Source of the DNA: a virus
Lineage: Duplodnaviria > Caudoviricetes
Strand: one strand, 5' to 3'
DNA length: 64,000 nt
Virus record (IMG/VR): IMGVR_UViG_3300032007_001727
Part shown: positions 2,855 to 64,000 of the stretch, in pieces
How positions within the stretch are numbered: the stretch's first letter is position 1
Layout of the letters: each line of letters begins with the position of its first letter
Program-made: the position numbers and the translations under genes
Notes under the pieces: generated by a model
The model's input: the letters and a program-made list of their open reading frames with translations, nothing else
The model's database searches: none
What the model was told of the DNA's origin: nothing

Positions 2855-2972
2855 AATTTTTTGGTGTTTTTTATTAAAAAACATTAAAATAATGTGGGAT
2901 ATCTTGTGTATCTCACATTTTTTTTATACTTTTGCAAAAAATGATGGTACAAACACAGAAAGAATAATCACT

Positions 2973-4364
2973 ATGCAGATATTCAAAGAAGAAAGAATTA
3001 TCAAGTTAATTGAGTTCATAAAAGATGAAATTAAGGATACTGCCTTCAGAAACCATGTATTCGTGGTCGGTGGCAGCATCAGAGATTCATTATTGGGACT
3101 TAAGGTAAAGGATATTGACTTGGTGGTGGACATCCCAAACGGAGGTGTATTACTATCGACGTTCTTGACAGCCAAGAACAACTGCTATAGAACCGGAAAG
3201 AACCCCGTCATTTACAACAAATACGGTACCGCAAAGTTCCAATTTCTCAACCACAACGAATTCAACGACATTGAAATAGAGTGTGTACAAACTAGGAAGG
3301 AACAATACCACAATGAGAGCCGGAACCCAAAAGTCGTATTCGGCGAACTTGAAGAAGATGCCAAGAGAAGGGACTTTACGGTCAACTCAATTTACTACAA
3401 CATTAGCAGTGATAGGATAGAAGACCCGAATAACGGGTTGGATGATATTCTAAATGCTGTCATCAAGACTCCGTCAAACCCAAGAATAATCTTCATGGAA
3501 GACCCGCTCAGAATTCTGAGGGCGGTGAGGTTTTCTTGTAAATTGGGTTGGGGTATTGAAAAGGATACTTGGTTGGGCATGATTGAAAATGCCCATAGGA
3601 TAGATATCATATCCCAAGAAAGAATAACCGATGAGATAACCAAGATTTTGACATCACACAAGCCTAGTGTCGGGATAAGGAAGATGCTAGGGTGCGGATT
3701 GCTACATAGGGTATTGCCGGACATATACGACCTAATTGGCGTATCTGAGTGCGGCAAACTGTCTCTGTTTGACCATACAATGTCTGTGTTGGATGTCGTA
3801 AACCCGTGCATAGAGCACCGTTTAGCAGCCCTTTTCCATGATGTGGGCAAAGTCGTTGTCAATGGGGTTAATTCAAAACACGTTGATGTCCCCTCTTTCA
3901 GCAGTGATATTGCCTCCCATGACTTGTTTATGATGAAATATCCGAATTCCGTAATAGATACGGTTGAAAAGGCAATCAAGTATCACATGGCCTTTTCCAA
4001 TTACGGGGAATATGAAATCCCAAGGGATAAGATACTCCGGAAATTCATTCATCTAGTAGGTGATTCGATTGCACCGACATTCGACCTTATGAATGCAAAC
4101 AACGCATTCTGCGGGCGAAACAAGAAGAAGACCCAAGTCATGAACATACTGAACCGGATGGAAGAGTTGGAAAACATAGAAAATATGCAGAATGTTAAAC
4201 TTCCGGTTTCCGGAAAGGATATTATGGAGAAATTCAATCTGAAACAGTCTCCGCTGATTGGTACCCTCTTGAATGAGATAAGAGAGGCTTATTTTGAACG
4301 TCCGGACATTACAAAGGAAGAGTGCTTTGAATTGGTAGACAAAATCTTAAATAAAGTTATCTGA
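2973..4364 (+). CDS. cca: CCA tRNA nucleotidyltransferase (class II) with HD domain
   Basis: VGGSIRD, DIDL, RRDFTVN, EDPLRILRAVRF, ERITDE, FDHT...LFHDVGK. Confidence 0.93.
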   Translation: MQIFKEERIIKLIEFIKDEIKDTAFRNHVFVVGGSIRDSLLGLKVKDIDLVVDIPNGGVLLSTFLTAKNNCYRTGKNPVIYNKYGTAKFQFLNHNEFNDIEIECVQTRKEQYHNESRNPKVVFGELEEDAKRRDFTVNSIYYNISSDRIEDPNNGLDDILNAVIKTPSNPRIIFMEDPLRILRAVRFSCKLGWGIEKDTWLGMIENAHRIDIISQERITDEITKILTSHKPSVGIRKMLGCGLLHRVLPDIYDLIGVSECGKLSLFDHTMSVLDVVNPCIEHRLAALFHDVGKVVVNGVNSKHVDVPSFSSDIASHDLFMMKYPNSVIDTVEKAIKYHMAFSNYGEYEIPRDKILRKFIHLVGDSIAPTFDLMNANNAFCGRNKKKTQVMNILNRMEELENIENMQNVKLPVSGKDIMEKFNLKQSPLIGTLLNEIREAYFERPDITKEECFELVDKILNKVI

Positions 4365-6139: not shown

Positions 6140-7426
6140 TTATTGTTCAACCTTTGTCCAATTATTTAACTGGGTAATCCAAACATCATAGCCACTGCTA
6201 CCAATTGGAACGTAGAGGGTGCCTCCTGTCCTAACAATTTGGAAAGTAGAATTAGTTATTGTTGGTGCAGTTGTTGCAAGTGATGTTATTGCTGATAAAT
6301 TAGAACAATTAGTGAAAGCATTATTACCAATGCTTGTAACACTGTCCGGAATTGTTATGCTTGGTAAACTTGTACAATAATAGAAAGCACTATTACCAAT
6401 GCTTGTAACGGTGTTTGGAATTGTTATGCTTCTTAAACTTCTACAATCAATGAAAGCACTATCACCAATGCTTGTAACACCACTGCCAATGGTACAAGTT
6501 GTCATAGCAGAACAACCATAGAAAGCACTACCACCAATACTTGTAACACTGTCCGGAATTGTTATGTCTGATAAACTTTCACAATAAAAGAAAGTACTAT
6601 CACCAATGGTCGTAACACTGTCCGGAATTGTTATGCTTGTTAAACTAGAACAACTATGGAAAGCCCTATTACCAATACTTGTAACACCGCTGCCAAGGGT
6701 ACAAGTTGTCATAGCAGAACAATTTTGGAAAGCATTACTACCAATGCTTGTAACACTGTCCGGAATTGTTATGCTTGTTAAACTATAACAATTAGTGAAA
6801 GCACTGTCACCAATGCTTGTAACACCGCTGCCAATGGTACAAGTTGTCATAGCAGAACAATTTTGGAAGGTATAATCAGCAATGCTTGTAACACCACTGC
6901 CAATGGTGCAAGTTGTCATAGCAGAACAACCACTGAAAGCATAATTACCAATGCTTGTAACACTGTCCGGAATTGTTATGCTTGGTAAACTAGAACAATA
7001 AACGAAGGCATTATTACCAATGCTTGTGACAGTGTTTGGAATTGTTATGCTTGTTAAACTTCTACAACCATTGAAAGCATACTCACCAATGCTTGTAACA
7101 CCACTGCCAATGGTACAAGTTGTCATAGCAGAACAACCATAGAAAGCCCAATTACCAATGCTTGTACAGAGTTCACCGATTTCAGCGCTGACACAAGTTG
7201 TACTGTAACCGCTTATCATTGCTCTTGTAAGTTCCCCACTGCCTTCAATTTCGACAACTTCTCCGGTGCGAAGGGTTAACTTACAGAAAAATGGTGGTGG
7301 GGGGGGGGTAGGATTGTAATGGACATCACCCTCAGCAACACAAAGTGACACGTTTGGTTTTGGGTAGTCCGTGGCAACATACGCCGTATAGTCAGCATGT
7401 GTTGCAAATTCTTTAACGTACTTCAT
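6140..7426 (-). CDS. BspA-like leucine-rich repeat protein (LRR_5), phase-ON (C10 tract)
   Basis: About 13 repeats of TIPDSVTSIGxxAFxxC / TIGSGVTSIG; G10 at 7299-7308 is in frame. Confidence 0.93.
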   Translation of the reverse strand: MKYVKEFATHADYTAYVATDYPKPNVSLCVAEGDVHYNPTPPPPPFFCKLTLRTGEVVEIEGSGELTRAMISGYSTTCVSAEIGELCTSIGNWAFYGCSAMTTCTIGSGVTSIGEYAFNGCRSLTSITIPNTVTSIGNNAFVYCSSLPSITIPDSVTSIGNYAFSGCSAMTTCTIGSGVTSIADYTFQNCSAMTTCTIGSGVTSIGDSAFTNCYSLTSITIPDSVTSIGSNAFQNCSAMTTCTLGSGVTSIGNRAFHSCSSLTSITIPDSVTTIGDSTFFYCESLSDITIPDSVTSIGGSAFYGCSAMTTCTIGSGVTSIGDSAFIDCRSLRSITIPNTVTSIGNSAFYYCTSLPSITIPDSVTSIGNNAFTNCSNLSAITSLATTAPTITNSTFQIVRTGGTLYVPIGSSGYDVWITQLNNWTKVEQ

Positions 7427-38649: not shown

Positions 38650-38774
38650 TGGGAAGTACTAGAGGAGAACCATCTTGCAATCCTGCAAGGGTGGATGTAG
38701 ACAAATAGGTATCAAGTTTGTGCTTGATATGTCGCCTACGGGCGGCTTCGGCGGTGCAAATCCGTCCTTCCCAA
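38650..38774 (+). ncRNA. tRNA-Tyr-like non-canonical RNA, copy 1
   Basis: Acceptor TGGGAAG/CTTCCCA+A, TA, D-stem CTA/TAG with inserted hairpin, 7-bp stem TATCAAG/CTTGATA, long variable arm, T-arm GGCGG-TGCAAAT-CCGTC. Confidence 0.8.
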
Positions 38775-38831
38775 CAAATTTCTTGCGGTGGACAAGGACG
38801 GAATTAATCCGAAAAAAAACCACCTATCTTT

Positions 38832-38947
38832 TGGAAGATACCGGAGGAGAACTATCCGCAAGGGTAGATGTAGACAAACGGGTATCAAGTATGTGCTTGA
38901 TATGTCGCTTACGAGCGGCTTCGGCGGTGCAAATCCGCCTCTTCCAA
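38832..38947 (+). ncRNA. tRNA-Tyr-like non-canonical RNA, copy 2
   Basis: Acceptor TGGAAGA/TCTTCCA+A, D-stem CCG/CGG; same fold with compensatory changes. Confidence 0.8.
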
Positions 38948-49841: not shown

Positions 49842-50024
49842 AAACAAATAAGAGTTGAGGTGATTCCTCAACTCTTTCTTTTTATCGTTTCTATTGTATT
49901 TCTTTCTGTTCTTGTGAACTTTTGTGACAGATACGAAGTGTCCTCCGCCGTTCCTTTCGAAAGAATCGGCCCTTGAAATGAATCTGATGATGTCAGATTG
50001 TTTGTTTGACTTTGGAATTTTCAT
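49737..50024 (-). CDS. Small basic hypothetical protein
   Basis: KVHKNRKKYNR; ATGA overlap with the upstream gene. Confidence 0.5.
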   Translation of the reverse strand: MKIPKSNKQSDIIRFISRADSFERNGGGHFVSVTKVHKNRKKYNRNDKKKELRNHLNSYLFLIFLIKRFPISLGHLCEVCSFPSQRIFGVTQFLS

Positions 50025-50770
50025 ACTCTTTCTAGTTTTCCGTCAGTTATCAAGAATGGTGCCCTGCAATCGATGCAAGCCCATTTATCCGTTATTACCG
50101 GCGAGTCGACCAATTGTGTGTGGCCGAATATCTGATAATCATATCCGTCCACAATTGAATCCTCGTTTATAACATAATTATCTATTCCGGACTTTTCCAA
50201 GTCAAGTTTTTCTCTGATGTCTGACCATAATATCGAGCCGGTGTCATATCCTATGTATGTCCGGTATTTTGAAATGTCGGACAATGATGTTACACCGTCC
50301 CTAGACGTGATTAACCTATTTAGGTTATCGGCATTTAGTTCACCTATTATGGCTTTATTCCTTTCGTACCAAGAACGCATTACACCGGCGTGGGTGAAGA
50401 GATATTTCCTATTGTCTATGGTTTCCTCATGTGCCAACTTGAAGAGATTTCTGTTTGTTGTGTATATATCCCTATAGGTATATGCATTGCTAGAGGAATA
50501 TCTAGTTGACCTTGGGAATGAGTCAAATATATAATGAAGGCAATGGTTGCCCAACAATAGGACAACCTTGTCTGCATTATCGAGTTTGAACTTTACTATT
50601 TCCTTAAAATTATTAAGTTCATCCTTCCTTGATATACCCTCGTCCTCATATCTGTCGACGTAGTCACCTAGGAATATAATCTTGCCTACATCGTTTCCGT
50701 GTGCCGCAACACCGTCCTTCCAAAACGTCCTTCCGTGGATGTCCGGAATTACCATCAGTCCTCTACCCAT
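50021..50770 (-). CDS. Metallophosphoesterase
   Basis: PDIHG, LGDYVDR, LGNH, THAG, FGHT. Confidence 0.9.
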   Translation of the reverse strand: MGRGLMVIPDIHGRTFWKDGVAAHGNDVGKIIFLGDYVDRYEDEGISRKDELNNFKEIVKFKLDNADKVVLLLGNHCLHYIFDSFPRSTRYSSSNAYTYRDIYTTNRNLFKLAHEETIDNRKYLFTHAGVMRSWYERNKAIIGELNADNLNRLITSRDGVTSLSDISKYRTYIGYDTGSILWSDIREKLDLEKSGIDNYVINEDSIVDGYDYQIFGHTQLVDSPVITDKWACIDCRAPFLITDGKLERV

Positions 50771-54483: not shown

Positions 54484-55875
54484 ATGAAGTATTTACAAAA
54501 GTTCGCAACTGCCGCTGACTATACGGCATACGTTGCCACGGATTATCCAAAGCCAAACGTAAGTTATGTTTTGGCTGACAGTGTTGTCCATTACAACCCG
54601 GATGTTCCACCCCCCCCCCCATCTTTCTTTGTTAAGTTAACCACACAAGATTACAGCGGTTATACCTTGGTTGGTGAACCAACAGAGGTTGAGTTACAAG
54701 GAAGCGGAGAACTGACACAATGTATGATTCTTCCTTATTTATCTTATGACCATGACCCTGGAACGGGTGATGTTTTCGGCACTTGCATATCATCAATTGT
54801 TTGCGGCGAATTATGCACAAGCATCGGTGACTTGTATAATTCTTGGGAAGGTTCTTGTATTAAATCTGAAGAAGACACGTATAAAATCCAAAACACTTGT
54901 GGTTTACTTCAAACCCTTGTTATTTCAAACAGTGTTTCAAGCATAAGCGGAAGTGCTTTTGATGGGTGTGACGGAATTAGAACTTTATACATTGGAAGTG
55001 GCATAACAAATATCAACCAAGTTTTCGCAATGGGCAACCTTCGTGGGTTATCAGACGTAGAAGTTGATGCTGCCAACACAGTTTATGACTCAAGAAATAA
55101 TTGTCATGCAATCATTGAAACCGCCACAAATACCTTGATAAAGGGTTCTAATGCGACATTTATTCCAAATGGTATTACAAGCATTGGTGAGTATGCTTTC
55201 CCTCATTGTACCGCTTTAACAAGTATGACAATTCCGGACAGTGTCACAAGCATTGGTCAATATGCTTTCGTTGAATGCTATGGTATGACAACTTGTACAA
55301 TTGGTAGTGGTGTTACAAGTATTGCTGATAATGCTTTCCAAAATTGTTCCGGTTTAACAAATGTGACAATACCAAGTGGTGTTACAAGCATTGGTCAATA
55401 TGCTTTTGGTAATTGTTCTAGTTTATCAAGTATAACAATTCCGGACAGTGTTACAAGCATTGGTGATAGTGCTTTCAGTGATTGTTCTGCTATGACAATT
55501 TGCAATATTGGCAGTGGTGTTACAAGTGTTGGTACCTATGCTTTCTATGACTGTTCTAGTTTATCAAGTATAACAATTCCGGACAATGTTACAAGCATTG
55601 GTAACAATGCTTTCAGTGATTGTTCTGCTATGACAATTTGCAATATTGGCAGTGGTGTTACAAGGATTAATGACGGTGCTTTCTATAGATGTTCTAGTTT
55701 ATCAGCAATAACCTCACTTGCAACGACAGCACCAACAATATCAAGTACTACATTCCGGGATATTAAGACCGGTGGTACTCTCTATGTTCCAAAAGGTAGC
55801 AGCGGTTATAACGTTTGGATGAGAACTTACAATTTTTACTTAGGTAAGTATGGTTGGACCAAGGTTGAACAATAA
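54484..55875 (+). CDS. BspA-like LRR protein, phase-ON (C11 tract)
   Basis: LRR_5 repeats; C11 at 54610-54620 is in frame. Confidence 0.93.
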   Translation: MKYLQKFATAADYTAYVATDYPKPNVSYVLADSVVHYNPDVPPPPPSFFVKLTTQDYSGYTLVGEPTEVELQGSGELTQCMILPYLSYDHDPGTGDVFGTCISSIVCGELCTSIGDLYNSWEGSCIKSEEDTYKIQNTCGLLQTLVISNSVSSISGSAFDGCDGIRTLYIGSGITNINQVFAMGNLRGLSDVEVDAANTVYDSRNNCHAIIETATNTLIKGSNATFIPNGITSIGEYAFPHCTALTSMTIPDSVTSIGQYAFVECYGMTTCTIGSGVTSIADNAFQNCSGLTNVTIPSGVTSIGQYAFGNCSSLSSITIPDSVTSIGDSAFSDCSAMTICNIGSGVTSVGTYAFYDCSSLSSITIPDNVTSIGNNAFSDCSAMTICNIGSGVTRINDGAFYRCSSLSAITSLATTAPTISSTTFRDIKTGGTLYVPKGSSGYNVWMRTYNFYLGKYGWTKVEQ

Positions 55876-56802: not shown

Positions 56803-58134
56803 TTACTTTTTATAGCAATTTTTGCGAATATTTATCAGAATATCATTGATGAGGCCAATATCTATTGATTCCTTTATTGTTGAAGTATTTATGGCCTTAT
56901 CCAATTCAACCATATTGGAATTGAGGTTTTCAATTAGTTCATCATATTCGAACTTATGGTTTCTGATGTCCAACAAAAATTCTCTGTCCCAAGTTCTTTC
57001 AACATTCACGCCGTTGCCTTCCGCTATTTCTTTCCCCATATGTATGAGTCTGAAGCAATGCATCATATTCTTGGAATCATAATTCTTATGGAGATTGCTT
57101 TCATATCTCTTCTGATTCCGGTATTTCTCCCAATCCTTATAATTCCTATAATCCACACAATGTTTCTTGTATGCATTTTCATTGAATGATGCATAGCATA
57201 TCGGTTTTTCCCCCTTTGATACGGAAGTTAATTTCAAGGATTGTGATTTGGGGCCGACGCACCCATTATACCGTGTGGGTTTTTTATTTTCATACCATTC
57301 ACCAAGTCTATCTTTGATGTCACCATCATTAATTCCATAGAAATTTATGATAAAATCAACCATATTGCTGATGTATGATTTATTCAATAGGTTCTCATAA
57401 GATTCTTTTTCCTCTGTCGTGGATGCCTTGAGGTCGGAAACTAGTTCATCGGTCTTGAGTTTACCTATGTTATCCAAACCTTCAAATATGTCACCAATGG
57501 TTATGTTCTCTTTTAGGAAGAACGTACCCCAATCGTAATACACGCCATACATATCTTGCATGTTTGGAATTTTAACCAATCCGCAATATTCTTGCTTCAA
57601 TCCCCTATATGACAACCAATTCTCCAATTTCGTGCTTCCTTGATTAAAGAATGTATATGTAAAATCGAGCACCCCTTTTCTTTCAACTCTCTCCTTTTCC
57701 CAATTTATCATCTTGTTCAAGCCTTTCGCCTTTTCAATCTGTGCCCTAGCATACCCGATAAACGGTTTAAAACATTCCTTTGTGATGAATTCCTCCTTGT
57801 TTTCAAACAAAGGTATGATGACATCATTCGGAGGTGTTATAATCTTATATGTTGGAACAAATAGAGCCTCCAATGTATTTGGATTGGATTTTAACAACAT
57901 ACCGAAAAATTTACCAATTTCGTAGAAATTGTTATCGTTCCTATCATCTGAGACAAGGTCTTCATAGAACATGTCCAAACCGTATAGTTTTTCCTTTGGT
58001 ATTATGAAAATACCTTTTGTGTCAATGTCACTGCCATCGACATTTAGGTTATACAAATGGGAACCGGAAATATACGAATAAACCAATTCTCCCTTTTCTT
58101 TCGGAAATTTAAAAGTAAAATTATTGATGTCCAT
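56803..58134 (-). CDS. Predicted nucleotidyltransferase (RlaP/YcgL, T4 NrdC.11-like)
   Basis: GSHLY.L....SDIDTKGIF, NPNTLE.LF, YDSKNMMHCFRL. Confidence 0.85.
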   Translation of the reverse strand: MDINNFTFKFPKEKGELVYSYISGSHLYNLNVDGSDIDTKGIFIIPKEKLYGLDMFYEDLVSDDRNDNNFYEIGKFFGMLLKSNPNTLEALFVPTYKIITPPNDVIIPLFENKEEFITKECFKPFIGYARAQIEKAKGLNKMINWEKERVERKGVLDFTYTFFNQGSTKLENWLSYRGLKQEYCGLVKIPNMQDMYGVYYDWGTFFLKENITIGDIFEGLDNIGKLKTDELVSDLKASTTEEKESYENLLNKSYISNMVDFIINFYGINDGDIKDRLGEWYENKKPTRYNGCVGPKSQSLKLTSVSKGEKPICYASFNENAYKKHCVDYRNYKDWEKYRNQKRYESNLHKNYDSKNMMHCFRLIHMGKEIAEGNGVNVERTWDREFLLDIRNHKFEYDELIENLNSNMVELDKAINTSTIKESIDIGLINDILINIRKNCYKK

Positions 58135-58606: not shown

Positions 58607-59422
58607 TTATTCTTCAAACGTTATCCTAGATTCGACATATTGCCTATCCTCACCTTTAAGGATTGGCATTTCGTAATCTATTAGCCAACCTTCATCGGAT
58701 TTAACCACCGCTGTCCCTCTCTTTTCGGCAACAGATAAGTTATTCCAATTTATGTTGAATTTTTCCATCAGCATATCTTGAATTTGTGAGGTATTCTTTC
58801 CTTTTAATTCCTTATGGGAGAAGAATGCTTGACCTAGGCTGCTAACCGAATTCCTAGAACAGTCTTGTTGTCTCCAAAGGATACAGTTTGTAACCTCAGA
58901 CAATGGGACGTTGAATACCCTAGCATCGAACAAGGCACCGGTCTTTAGTGCCCTCTTATATCCATTTATGGCCCTTTCAACCATTTCGGATGCATCGCCG
59001 TATATTTCACGGTAGTCACCGTCGGTTCCATATTCAGAAATGAAGGCATTTGCCTTTTTGGCAAATATTCTGTTGAAATACAGTGTACACATGGATGCAA
59101 CGACCGAGCATACTTTTTGTACGTTATAGTCAAACCATGCACATGTATCCAATGTATTATAGTCCACCAATACTAGGGTAATCTCATCGGATTGGGTATA
59201 GCCAAAGACGCAGCCTTGAATGTTTTTGCAGAGTTCCAATGTAGTTTCTTGCATTGTCTCCATGAACCTTTGGTCAAACGGCTTCACAAAGCCTTTTGTG
59301 AAGGTATGGAACGCCTTTCCGTCCAATCTTATAATAACCGGTGTCCTCCTCAATAAATATGTTTTTGACCGATTCTCATAGTTGAGTTTCATCCGGTCAC
59401 CCAAACTATCTTTTGTTGCCAT
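58607..59422 (-). CDS. thg1: tRNA(His) guanylyltransferase Thg1-like protein
   Basis: DRMK.YE, IRLDGKAFHTFT, YTQSDEI, FDARVF, WRQQD..RNS. Confidence 0.92.
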   Translation of the reverse strand: MATKDSLGDRMKLNYENRSKTYLLRRTPVIIRLDGKAFHTFTKGFVKPFDQRFMETMQETTLELCKNIQGCVFGYTQSDEITLVLVDYNTLDTCAWFDYNVQKVCSVVASMCTLYFNRIFAKKANAFISEYGTDGDYREIYGDASEMVERAINGYKRALKTGALFDARVFNVPLSEVTNCILWRQQDCSRNSVSSLGQAFFSHKELKGKNTSQIQDMLMEKFNINWNNLSVAEKRGTAVVKSDEGWLIDYEMPILKGEDRQYVESRITFEE

Positions 59423-60870: not shown

Positions 60871-62243
60871 ATGATATTTTTAAAGAAATTTGCAACGACT
60901 AGTGACTATGACTCCTACGTTGCCACAGATTATCCGAAGCCAAACGTAAGTTATGTTGTGGCCGGTACTTCGGTACATTTTACCCCCTCCCCATATTCTG
61001 TAAATTAACCCTTAATAATGGTGAAGTTGTTAAACTTGAAGGAAGTGGAACACTAACAAGTGCAATGACGAATCCCTATATAGATTCTATCGCTAGTGCT
61101 AAAATCGGTGAACTTTGCACGAGTATTGGTAATAAGGCTTTTGTTAATTGTTCCGCCATGACAAGTTGCACCATTGGTAATGGTGTTACAAGTATTGGTG
61201 ACCAGGCTTTCAGTGGGTGTTCTGCTATGACGAGTTGTACTATTGGAAGTGGTGTTACAACCATTGGTGCTAGTGCTTTCACCGGTTGTCGTAGTTTATC
61301 AACTATAACAATTCCGGACAGTGTTACAAGCATTTATTATGGGGCTTTCGCTTTTTGTTATGGTTTAACGAGTATAATAATTCCGGACAGTGTTATAGAA
61401 ATTGTTGGCGGTACCTTCCAATGGTGTAAAGCAATGACAACTTGTATCATTGGGAATGGTGCTACAAGCATTAGACGTAATACCTTTGGAATGTGTTCTG
61501 CCATGACAACTTGTACCATTGGTAGTGGTGTTACAAGCATTGATAATAGCGCTTTCAGTGGTTGTACTAGTTTAACAACCATAAACATTCCAAACAATGT
61601 TACAACAATTGATATTTGTGCTTTCCAAGGTTGTACTAGTTTATCAAGTATAACAATCCCGGATAGTGTTACAAGTATTGGTAATCAGGCTTTTGGTGGT
61701 TGTTCTGCCATGACAACTTGTACAATTGGCAGTGGTGTCACAACCATTGGCAGTTCTATTTTCTCTAAGTGTTCTAGTTTATCAAACATAACAGTTGATG
61801 CCGCAAATACAACCTATGACTCAAGAAACAATTGCAATGCAATTATTCAAACAAGCACAAACACTTTAATACAAGGTTGTAGTACAACTATTATACCGAA
61901 CACTGTTACAAGCATTGGTAATCAGGCTTTCCAATTTTGTTCTAGTTTAACAAACATAACAATTCCGGACAGTGTCACAACCATTGGTAATATTGCTTTC
62001 CAAAGTTGTTCTGCTATGACAACTTGTACAATTGGTAGTGGCGTTACAAGTATTGGTAGTAATGCTTTCGGTTATTGTAGTAGTTTATCAGCAATAATCT
62101 CGCTTGCCACAACAGCACCAACAACAACAAATAATACTTTTTATAGAGTTAAGACCGGTGGTACTCTCTATGTTCCACAAGGTAGCAGCGGTTATAATAC
62201 TTGGATGAACCAATTGCCTAATTGGACAAAACTTGTACAATAA
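60871..62243 (+). pseudogene. BspA-like LRR protein, frameshifted (phase-OFF) at a C5-T-C4 tract
   Basis: ATG 60871 reads MIFLKKFATTSDYDSYVATDYPKPNVS...HFTPSP and stops at 61008; one extra C joins IFCKLTLNNGEVVKLEGSG and the 61065-62243 LRR ORF. Confidence 0.88.
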
Positions 62244-62291: not shown

Positions 62292-63581
62292 TTACTTTGC
62301 AATTACCAAGCAATAGTCTTTCTTTCCTTTCTGCAACAACAAATACTTGTCATCGATGAGTTGACCGTGTCCGACAATCACTTTGTCATTATTAACCTTT
62401 TTCTTGTTAATGGAAAATCCGTTTGCCTTTATCAACTTCTTGGCCTCAGTCTTCGATGTAATTTTATCGTGCATCAACGCAATATCGATAATCGGCATTC
62501 CGTTTTCAAATTCACCCTTATTGACTTCAACTTTGCTAACATCCTTCATTACATCTAGGAATGTATCCTCATCCATCCTTTCCAATGCCTCCGTGGTGCC
62601 GTTTCCAAAAAGAATTTCTGATGCTGCAATAGCCTTGTTGTAGTCATTCTCAGAATGAACCAAGCAAGTCATGTATTTTGCAAGTTCGCCTTGTAGGTAT
62701 CTCTTGCTAGGATTCTCACGGTGCTTTGAAATCATTGCACCTATTTCTTCAAGTGGAATTAAGGTGAACTTCTTGATAAAGGATTCAGCATCCTCGTCAC
62801 TTTGATTCAACCAAAACTGATAGAATTGGAACGGTGTTGTCTTATTTGGGTCGAGCCAAACGCTGTTGCCTTCTGTTTTGCCGAATTTCCTACCGTCGGC
62901 ACAAGTTATCAAATCCCAAGTGATTCCGCATACATCATCCTTGCCCAATACCTTATGGATAAGGTCTTGTCCGGTTACCATGTTTCCCAAATTATCGGTC
63001 CCGGCAATCTGAAGTTTGCACCCATATTCTCTGTATAAGTGCAAGAAATCATACCCTTGCAAGAGACCATATGAGAACTCTTGGAATGATATGCCGTTTC
63101 CCTCTCTTTCGAGGCGCTTTCGCACGTTTTCCTTTGCCATAAGGTAGTTCACGGTGATTTTCTTGCCGACATCACGTATAAAATCCAAGAATTTATAATC
63201 CTTGTACCAATCATAGTTATTCACCATAATGGCACCGTTTGGCAAACTTGAATCAAAGTCAATTATCTTTGAAATCTGTTTCTTGACACATTCTACATTG
63301 TGGAAGACCGTTTCCATTGAAATGGCTTTTCTTTCCTCGCTCTTGCCGCTTGGGTCACCGATGGCACAAGTTGCACCACCCACAAGTATTATTGGCTTAT
63401 GCCCGAATTGCTGAAACATTCTAGCAACCATAAGTCCGACCATATGGTGAACACCTAGCGAATCCGCCGTAGGGTCCAAGCCTATGTACAGCGTTGTCGG
63501 TTTACTTAGGCATTCTTCAAGATTGCCGAATACTTGTGAATACAAGCCCCTTTCCTTGAGTTCTTTAATTAATGGATTCAT
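62292..63581 (-). CDS. tyrS: Tyrosyl-tRNA synthetase with altered HIGH motif
   Basis: YIGLDPTADSL, GGAT..IGDPSG, EFSYGLLQGYD, KFGKT, S4-like tail. Confidence 0.95.
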   Translation of the reverse strand: MNPLIKELKERGLYSQVFGNLEECLSKPTTLYIGLDPTADSLGVHHMVGLMVARMFQQFGHKPIILVGGATCAIGDPSGKSEERKAISMETVFHNVECVKKQISKIIDFDSSLPNGAIMVNNYDWYKDYKFLDFIRDVGKKITVNYLMAKENVRKRLEREGNGISFQEFSYGLLQGYDFLHLYREYGCKLQIAGTDNLGNMVTGQDLIHKVLGKDDVCGITWDLITCADGRKFGKTEGNSVWLDPNKTTPFQFYQFWLNQSDEDAESFIKKFTLIPLEEIGAMISKHRENPSKRYLQGELAKYMTCLVHSENDYNKAIAASEILFGNGTTEALERMDEDTFLDVMKDVSKVEVNKGEFENGMPIIDIALMHDKITSKTEAKKLIKANGFSINKKKVNNDKVIVGHGQLIDDKYLLLQKGKKDYCLVIAK

Positions 63582-63623
63582 TTCTTTCTTTTTTATTATT
63601 TTGTTTAACAACTAATAAGTTAC

Positions 63624-63871: not shown

Positions 63872-64000
63872 ATGAAATATGTTAAAGAATTTGCAACAAG
63901 TGCTGAGTACACAGCATACGTTGCCACGGATTACCCCAAGCCAAACGTGAGTTACGTTGTGGCTGACAGTGCCGTACACTACCATGCCCCCCCCGCCCCC
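63872..64000 (+). CDS. BspA-like LRR family gene, 5' end only (phase unknown)
   Basis: MKYVKEFATSAEYTAYVATDYPKPNVSYVVADSAVHYHAPPAP; C8-G-C5+ tract at the window end. Confidence 0.85.
   Translation, partial: MKYVKEFATSAEYTAYVATDYPKPNVSYVVADSAVHYHAPPAP

Follow-up and report, generated by a model that had tools for sequence, protein, structure and literature searches.

The window analysed here is a stretch of 64,000 nucleotides from the virus record IMGVR_UViG_3300032007_001727 (Duplodnaviria; Caudoviricetes) and forms part of a ~366-kb contig (366,743 bp). It carries, at positions 62292–63581 on the minus strand (TAA stop codon counted in), a tyrS gene for a bacterial-type tyrosyl-tRNA synthetase (TyrRS). 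The protein, designated P0001, is encoded by an uninterrupted open reading frame (ORF) of 429 amino acids with an ATG start codon and the N-terminus MNPLIKELKERG; an alternative TTG start codon at 63611 would add 10 residues that the homologues do not have. P0001 matched TIGR00234 (tyrS equivalog) over residues 3–427 with 335.1 bits (cut-off 113.8), PF00579 with 218 bits and PF22421 with 45 bits (E 7.8e-12), the last of these matches marking a C-terminal S4-like tRNA-binding domain (residues 344–426; 62304–62552, minus strand). An AlphaFold2 model built from a 72-sequence alignment had a mean predicted local distance difference test score (pLDDT) of 91.2, with 95 for residues 41–50 and 87–96 for the C-terminal domain, and displayed the Rossmann catalytic, helical and C-terminal S4-like domains of bacterial-type TyrRS. 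Foldseek gave a TM of 0.85–0.88 against full-length Escherichia coli TyrRS, and the catalytic domain of the Bacillus stearothermophilus (Bst) enzyme (2ts1) was matched with a TMt of 0.94 and a root-mean-square deviation of 1.6 Å over 318 columns. By profile, fold and all signatures except the order of the HIGH residues and Gln195, P0001 belongs with the bacterial TyrRS.

In P0001, the class I HIGH signature is replaced by GVHH (residues 43–46; 63444–63455, minus strand), as an earlier note made from these letters had claimed. The reverse complement of these positions reads GGT GTT CAC CAT, encoding G43, V44, H45 and H46 in the context DPTADSL-GVHH-MVG, and gapless HMMER alignments place G43–H46 opposite H-L-G-H of E. 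coli TyrRS (6hb5, DSLHLGH) and H-I-G-S of Elizabethkingia TyrRS (6n0w, DSLHIGS). The signature usual for TyrRS, H-x-G-[H/S/N], is thus lacking, its two defining residues both being present with their places traded. The motif conforms to the published definition of the GXHH type, in which residues 1 and 3 of HXGH are exchanged and the fourth His is kept (PMC10485003).

The rarity of this arrangement was assessed with 136 TyrRS representatives of 50%-identity clusters from outside the GxHH clade, which an exhaustive phmmer search had ranked best. Few residues of class I synthetases are as constant as the Gly at position 3 of HIGH, which was present in 134 of these representatives (99%). Position 1 was His in 90% of them and Gln or Thr in 13/136, and position 4 was His, Ser or Asn interchangeably. 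With positions 1 and 3 so nearly fixed, GVHH lies far from chance. In the search of 50%-identity clusters, GVHH was found in two clusters, that of P0001 itself and that of P0122 (56% identical). The earlier note had held that its proposal would fall if GxHH were common in ordinary Bacteroidota TyrRS; the motif was absent from the best 80 cellular TyrRS matches (Bacteroidota, mostly Chitinophagaceae, 46–50% identity) of 185,579 species genomes, all 80 of which had HIG[S/N/H/G], GGSDQWGN and PLIT, and named Bacteroides and Rikenellaceae TyrRS had HIGH, GG[S/A]DQWGN and PLIT. A DNA pattern for DPTx[D/N]SLGxHH had no match in 401 Bacteroidota genomes, a result of little weight given that the canonical control recovered 13/61 (~21% sensitivity). 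We found no report of GxHH for TyrRS or for phage synthetases in the literature. The motif G/AXHH, unrecognised before, has been described as “adopted exclusively in IleRS2”, the type 2 isoleucyl-tRNA synthetase, as opposed to IleRS1, with TyrRS unmentioned (Brkic et al. 2023, Nat Commun 14:5498; PMC10485003).

Other features of the active site, all on the minus strand, are a mixture of retained and altered residues, and here too the ORF bore out the residues listed in the earlier note. The tyrosine-pocket residues Y171, Q175 and D178 are retained within YGLLQGYD (63048–63071), as are D76, K80 and R84 within DPSGKSEER (63330–63356). The KMSKS-type loop is present as KFGKT (residues 232–236; 62874–62888), and is followed by N239 (loop and N239 together, 62865–62888), a residue found throughout the GxHH clade at a position occupied by Gly in 93% of other TyrRS. 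The segment GGSDQWGN is replaced by AGTDNLGN (residues 193–200; 62982–63005) through the substitutions G193A, S195T, Q197N and W198L, with G194 and D196 retained, and D223 (62913–62915), directly before the L-I-T strand leading toward KFGKT, replaces a Pro present in 89% of the TyrRS representatives. Y32, D76, Y171, Q175 and D178, which bind tyrosine, were invariant in 14 diverse GxHH members. T38, K80, R84, D196, K232 and K235 are likewise kept in P0001, and most of these 11 residues were invariant in the same 14 members. We take Y32, D76, K80, R84, Y171, Q175, D178 and Q197 to be equivalent to Y34, D78, K82, R86, Y169, Q173, D176 and Gln195, respectively, of the Bst enzyme, and T38, K80 and R84 to be the pyrophosphate-site residues of the Fersht and Blow literature. 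Gln195, which reportedly acts in the transition state (Fersht mutagenesis literature), was conserved at the position of N197 in 136/136 representatives and in 112/112 non-GxHH rows of the tree described below.

The GxHH motif defines a large and strictly conserved clade. We retrieved 203 distinct GxHH sequences (GVHH, 107; GIHH, 95; GAHH, 1), in all of which positions 1, 3 and 4 (G43, H45 and H46) were invariant. The nearest 120 homologues (77–84% identity) had G[I/V/A]HH together with KFGKT in 120/120 cases, and a search seeded with P0122 yielded 32 further GVHH clusters, 53–65% identical to P0122 and belonging to several sub-lineages, with no reversal of GxHH down to ~53% identity. P0122 itself had no relative in IMG/VR. 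Comparison of the window gene with those of three IMG/VR phages revealed synonymous differences in the motif codons, non-synonymous divergence (dN) of 0.10–0.21 and synonymous divergence (dS) greater than 1 or saturated, with dN/dS of 0.06–0.11 where computable. The invariance over 203 sequences, the dN/dS values and the synonymous motif codon differences indicate that GxHH is the result of neither decay nor chance, and the decaying gene that the earlier note had envisaged as a possible refutation is not what the window contains: the ORF is intact. The invariance of H46 within this clade, as opposed to the H/S/N found elsewhere, indicates that the motif is newly constrained.

These data also bear on the suggestion that P0001 is a catalytically dead paralogue kept for RNA binding or regulation, for example for sequestering tRNA-Tyr or mimic RNAs. 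Non-catalytic proteins resembling aminoacyl-tRNA synthetases (aaRS) are known, and the first His and Gln195, both of them hallmarks, have been replaced here. However, KFGKT, T38, K80, R84, D76 and D196, the role of which is solely catalytic, are invariant or nearly so in the clade, and each of three related phage genomes has a single PF00579 (Trp/Tyr-type) gene, making this explanation highly improbable. The description “active but remodelled” given in the earlier note fits the purifying selection and the full set of other catalytic and tRNA-binding residues, and seems apt at the level of sequence.

Phylogenetic trees were constructed by IQ-TREE (LG+C20 PMSF) for 92 rows and by FastTree for 156 rows (44 GxHH and 112 others). 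The GxHH sequences were monophyletic, with a single change of state (SH-aLRT 85 in IQ-TREE; SH-like support 97 in FastTree). Together with sister enzymes from huge phages, they lay within an apparently phage-derived clade of 71 rows (FastTree support 99). The GVHH swap therefore arose once, within the huge-phage TyrRS lineage. H43G and G45H were accompanied throughout the clade by L87I and G239N, the latter four residues past KFGKT, and less strictly by M89 and I106. Two sub-clades were distinguished. Sub-clade A, which contains P0001, has L/I198, N197 and D223, and is the only one in which AGTDNLGN replaces GGSDQWGN; in sub-clade B, GG.DQ is retained together with GVHH, residue 198 is Thr, residue 197 is Gln and residue 223 is either Asp or Pro. 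Position 223 was Asp in 26/44 GxHH rows and Pro in 110/112 other rows. P223D was considered as an obligatory partner of GxHH and rejected, as Pro is kept in 16/44 GxHH rows.

The distribution of these substitutions is informative about a possible change of substrate chemistry, in which the pocket would prefer another nucleotide or a tyrosine analogue, or would have acquired a side activity. H43G, G45H, G193A, Q197N and P223D all fall in motifs that we take to line the adenylate pocket, and Q197N is unique among the TyrRS examined. Nevertheless, the residues binding the side chain and amino group of tyrosine are all unchanged, related phages have an ordinary tRNA-Tyr(GUA), and the combination of GVHH with GG.DQ in sub-clade B indicates that the swap is independent of the other pocket changes. 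We consider such a change quite unlikely.

Another alternative is a frozen accident, a neutral or near-neutral compensated swap that became locked in without any gain in resistance or specificity. The stem branch of the GxHH clade is short (0.07–0.08 changes per site) and carries ~4–6 clade-wide changes, a return to HIGH would take four or more nucleotide changes by way of poor intermediates, the absence of His from position 1 is tolerated naturally in the 13 representatives with Gln or Thr, and no inhibitor is known to us for this system. By contrast, the near-constancy of the position 3 Gly elsewhere, the lack of any intermediate motif among the 136 representatives and the fact that the fourth His became invariant in this clade alone, suggestive of a new functional constraint, argue against it, and the sole studied precedent is adaptive (PMC10485003). 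The frozen accident is a serious rival that we regard as possible, if somewhat unlikely.

GxHH genes were restricted to phage-sized contigs, all of which were ≤~430 kb and four of which are IMG/VR phage genomes. Three of these genomes, of 412,514, 334,687 and 295,155 bp, were estimated by CheckV to be 96–100% complete; the smallest of the three has direct terminal repeats, and two had a Terminase_6N match. The nearest relatives of the GxHH clade are TyrRS from sister huge phages (15 IMG/VR contigs, nine of 242–413 kb; P0293–P0326). These are phages of the same kind as the GxHH carriers, with ~30–45 tRNAs and a non-G1 tRNA-Tyr, but their enzymes, unlike those of the GxHH clade, have a canonical HLGH or HVGH motif and keep GGSDQ[F/Y]GN. 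The cultured jumbo phages Pectobacterium CBB and Xanthomonas XbC2 (GAP32-like Mimasvirus; genomes of ~360–380 kb) also encode a full-length TyrRS, 36–38% identical to P0001, with canonical HIGS and GGSDQWGN. Bacteroidota TyrRS (Elizabethkingia anophelis 6n0w, Chitinophagaceae, Bacteroides and Rikenellaceae) resemble P0001 in domain architecture, length and fold (46–52% identity), and share its tyrosine pocket, KFGKT loop and C-terminal S4-like domain, but have HIG[S/N/H/G], GGSDQWGN and PLIT where P0001 has GVHH, AGTDNLGN and DLIT with N239.

A close parallel is provided by the GXHH (A/GXHH) IleRS2 of mupirocin hyper-resistance, and the precedent cited in the earlier note is genuine (PMC10485003). 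In both enzymes, residues 1 and 3 are exchanged, the fourth His is kept, the second residue is hydrophobic and the motif is conserved over natural clades. IleRS2 is a class Ia enzyme in which both motif and KMSKS loop have shifted position, whereas P0001 is a class Ic TyrRS from a phage gene, known here by sequence and model, in which the main accompanying change lies directly past the KFGKT loop. As P0001 is a TyrRS and does not belong to the IleRS2 family, the likeness is convergent rather than a matter of family-level homology. In class I enzymes, the first His of HXGH stabilises the transition state of activation, its loss costing ~10³-fold in several of them, TyrRS included, and the Gly provides space for the adenine (PMC10485003). 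In natural and engineered GXHH IleRS2, the N-epsilon-2 of the third His replaces the first His with catalysis only mildly lowered; this arrangement requires a shift of the motif toward the KMSKS loop, and it blocks mupirocin (PMC10485003).

By analogy, we think it probable that P0001 is an active TyrRS with a functionally relocated His. P0001 would probably make tyrosyl-adenylate (Tyr-AMP) and charge tRNA-Tyr by the ordinary two-step route, with the transition-state imidazole supplied by H45 at position 3 rather than from position 1, where G43 now stands, and H46, the fourth His, would have become indispensable after the swap. The huge-phage TyrRS lineage in which the swap occurred would be derived from Bacteroidota-type enzymes, and the swap would have arisen together with G239N, past the KFGKT loop, and L87I, both of which we propose as accommodating adjustments. 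The sub-lineage of P0001 would later have gained G193A, Q197N, W198L and P223D at the walls of the adenylate pocket and at the acceptor-end site. As to what drove the exchange, we would guess, with low confidence, that phage tyrosine charging was insulated in this way from an agent blocking canonical host-type TyrRS.

Several points weigh against an active enzyme with a relocated His. The same swap abolishes activity in IleRS1 (PMC10485003), so its tolerance is context-dependent and is not to be assumed. Q197N replaces an otherwise invariant Gln and could lower or alter activity. Furthermore, the resistance to inhibitors or toxin modification put forward in the earlier note is hypothetical, and we know of no such agent that would favour the swap in a TyrRS.

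An active GxHH TyrRS would be of interest beyond phages. The one natural exception so far described to the Gly at position 3 of HIGH is GXHH in IleRS2, the basis of mupirocin hyper-resistance and a change that fails in IleRS1; its occurrence in a TyrRS would show that evolution reached the swapped motif more than once, and a large, old and selectively kept GxHH clade would make the swap a general alternative for class I active sites. The GxHH enzymes and their HLGH sisters constitute a natural matched pair for the identification of swap-permitting changes, for which L87I and G239N are the candidates. A TyrRS whose ATP pocket is altered and which has a tRNA type of its own may also interest genetic-code engineers.

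The tRNA complement of these phages bears on a further suggestion of the earlier note, that GVHH is an adaptation to unusual RNA substrates. The three 96–100% complete relatives have 17–47 tRNAs, including tRNA-Tyr, and in a search for five aaRS Pfam families (covering 16 amino-acid specificities) TyrRS was the sole match. Bacterial tRNA-Tyr usually has a G1-C72 pair, and its discriminator base, A73, is contacted at Bst Trp196 or Thermus thermophilus Arg198, corresponding to position 198 here (PMC1934993). The phage tRNA-Tyr(GUA) had C1-G72 in G001 and G002 and U1-A72 in G404, with A73 in all; the genes lie at L035:16154-16240 (-), L040:3802-3888 (-), L132:13283-13366 (-) and L149:3416-3505 and 3704-3785 (+). 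The two types also differed in size, the C1-G72 type being 87–90 nt long and the U1-A72 type 82–84 nt. Both were present in phage G405, which has a canonical HLGH TyrRS, indicating that the odd tRNA-Tyr predates GxHH and is independent of it.

The window also contains two tRNA-like direct repeats of ~130 nt each (38650–38947, plus strand). Each has a 7-bp acceptor stem with U1-A72 followed by A73-C, a T-arm-like GGCGG-TGCAAAT-CCGYC element, a long GC-rich variable-arm hairpin, a large D-region insert and a 6-nt loop at the place of the anticodon loop. The repeats had no Rfam match and gave no tRNA with ARAGORN in default mode. They may be ligands of P0001. A motif remodelled for odd RNA substrates, whether these repeats or the non-G1-C72 tRNA-Tyr, would be in keeping with the C1-G72 and U1-A72 pairs of related phages, with U1-A72 and A73 in the window RNAs and with the substitution W198L at a position contacting A73 in other TyrRS. 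However, the HIGH motif binds ATP and not tRNA, the sister HLGH/HVGH enzymes have already lost the Trp at position 198 (F, Y or Q), and the occurrence of both odd tRNA-Tyr types beside HLGH in G405 shows that they are not specific to GxHH phages. We consider this explanation of GVHH very unlikely; judging from these sequences, the odd acceptor end of tRNA-Tyr may instead account for the loss of Trp198.

A bolder reading combines the GxHH TyrRS, the non-G1-C72 tRNA-Tyr and the tRNA-Tyr-like RNAs into a private tyrosine-charging channel: huge Bacteroidota phages would have independently reinvented GXHH, rendering their TyrRS immune to an agent that disables the canonical TyrRS of the host. The agent could be a natural inhibitor mimicking the adenylate, a factor of host defence or a shut-off factor made by the phage. 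This reading seems doubtful to us. Apart from it, a TyrRS that is the sole match among the five aaRS families searched, beside odd tRNA-Tyr genes and mimics, would mark tyrosine charging as a specific point of phage–host conflict.

Other observations relate to decoding in these phages. Stop-codon recoding was considered for the window and rejected, as the lengthening of ORFs by readthrough of TAG, TGA or TAA did not exceed chance expectation. The TyrRS genes end in TAA or TAG, and code 11 was retained. Huge-phage relatives have CUA-anticodon (amber suppressor) tRNAs of 78–92 nt, at L034:11506-11597 (-), L038:18172-18263 (-), L150:7142-7227 (+) and L151:7846-7923 (-). Those of G001 and G002 have a D-arm that looks Ser-like by eye and a long variable arm, which makes them less likely candidates for substrates of this TyrRS, although the anticodon stem-loop of the G001 CUA tRNA matches that of the phage tRNA-Tyr at every position but nucleotide 34. 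The TyrRS gene of G001 ends in TAG, so any amber recoding would be partial or stage-specific. Four related phages share an ARAGORN tRNA with a shortened loop and a two-base “anticodon” (tt), at L035:15606-15677 (-), L040:3527-3598 (-), L149:3910-3979 (+) and L152:4523-4594 (-), and G405 has an additional tRNA with a four-base anticodon (aaga; L153:1163-1258, +). These tRNAs are possibly non-standard decoders or tRNA-like decoys. Two of the three near-complete relatives also have a phage transfer-messenger RNA adjoining tRNA-Ile (L034:16262-16568 (-) and L039:3191-3516 (-)), with the tags GENIDSPAYAMAIAA and GENVDSPAYEYAIAA.

Around the TyrRS gene, the window encodes a set of tRNA maturation and repair proteins, at 2892–4364 (plus strand) and at 50021–50770, 56803–58134 and 58607–59422 (minus strand). 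This set comprises a CCA-adding enzyme, a NinI-like phosphatase/RNA-ligase-like protein, an RlaP-type nucleotidyltransferase and a Thg1-like tRNA-His guanylyltransferase (phrog_4717, E 7e-84). The window also encodes a UvrD helicase and BspA-type leucine-rich-repeat proteins (PF13306, E down to 4e-97), the genes for the latter lying at 6140–7426 (minus strand) and at 54484–55875, 61065–62243 and 63872–64000 (plus strand). The window ends with a C-rich run within a BspA-type ORF.

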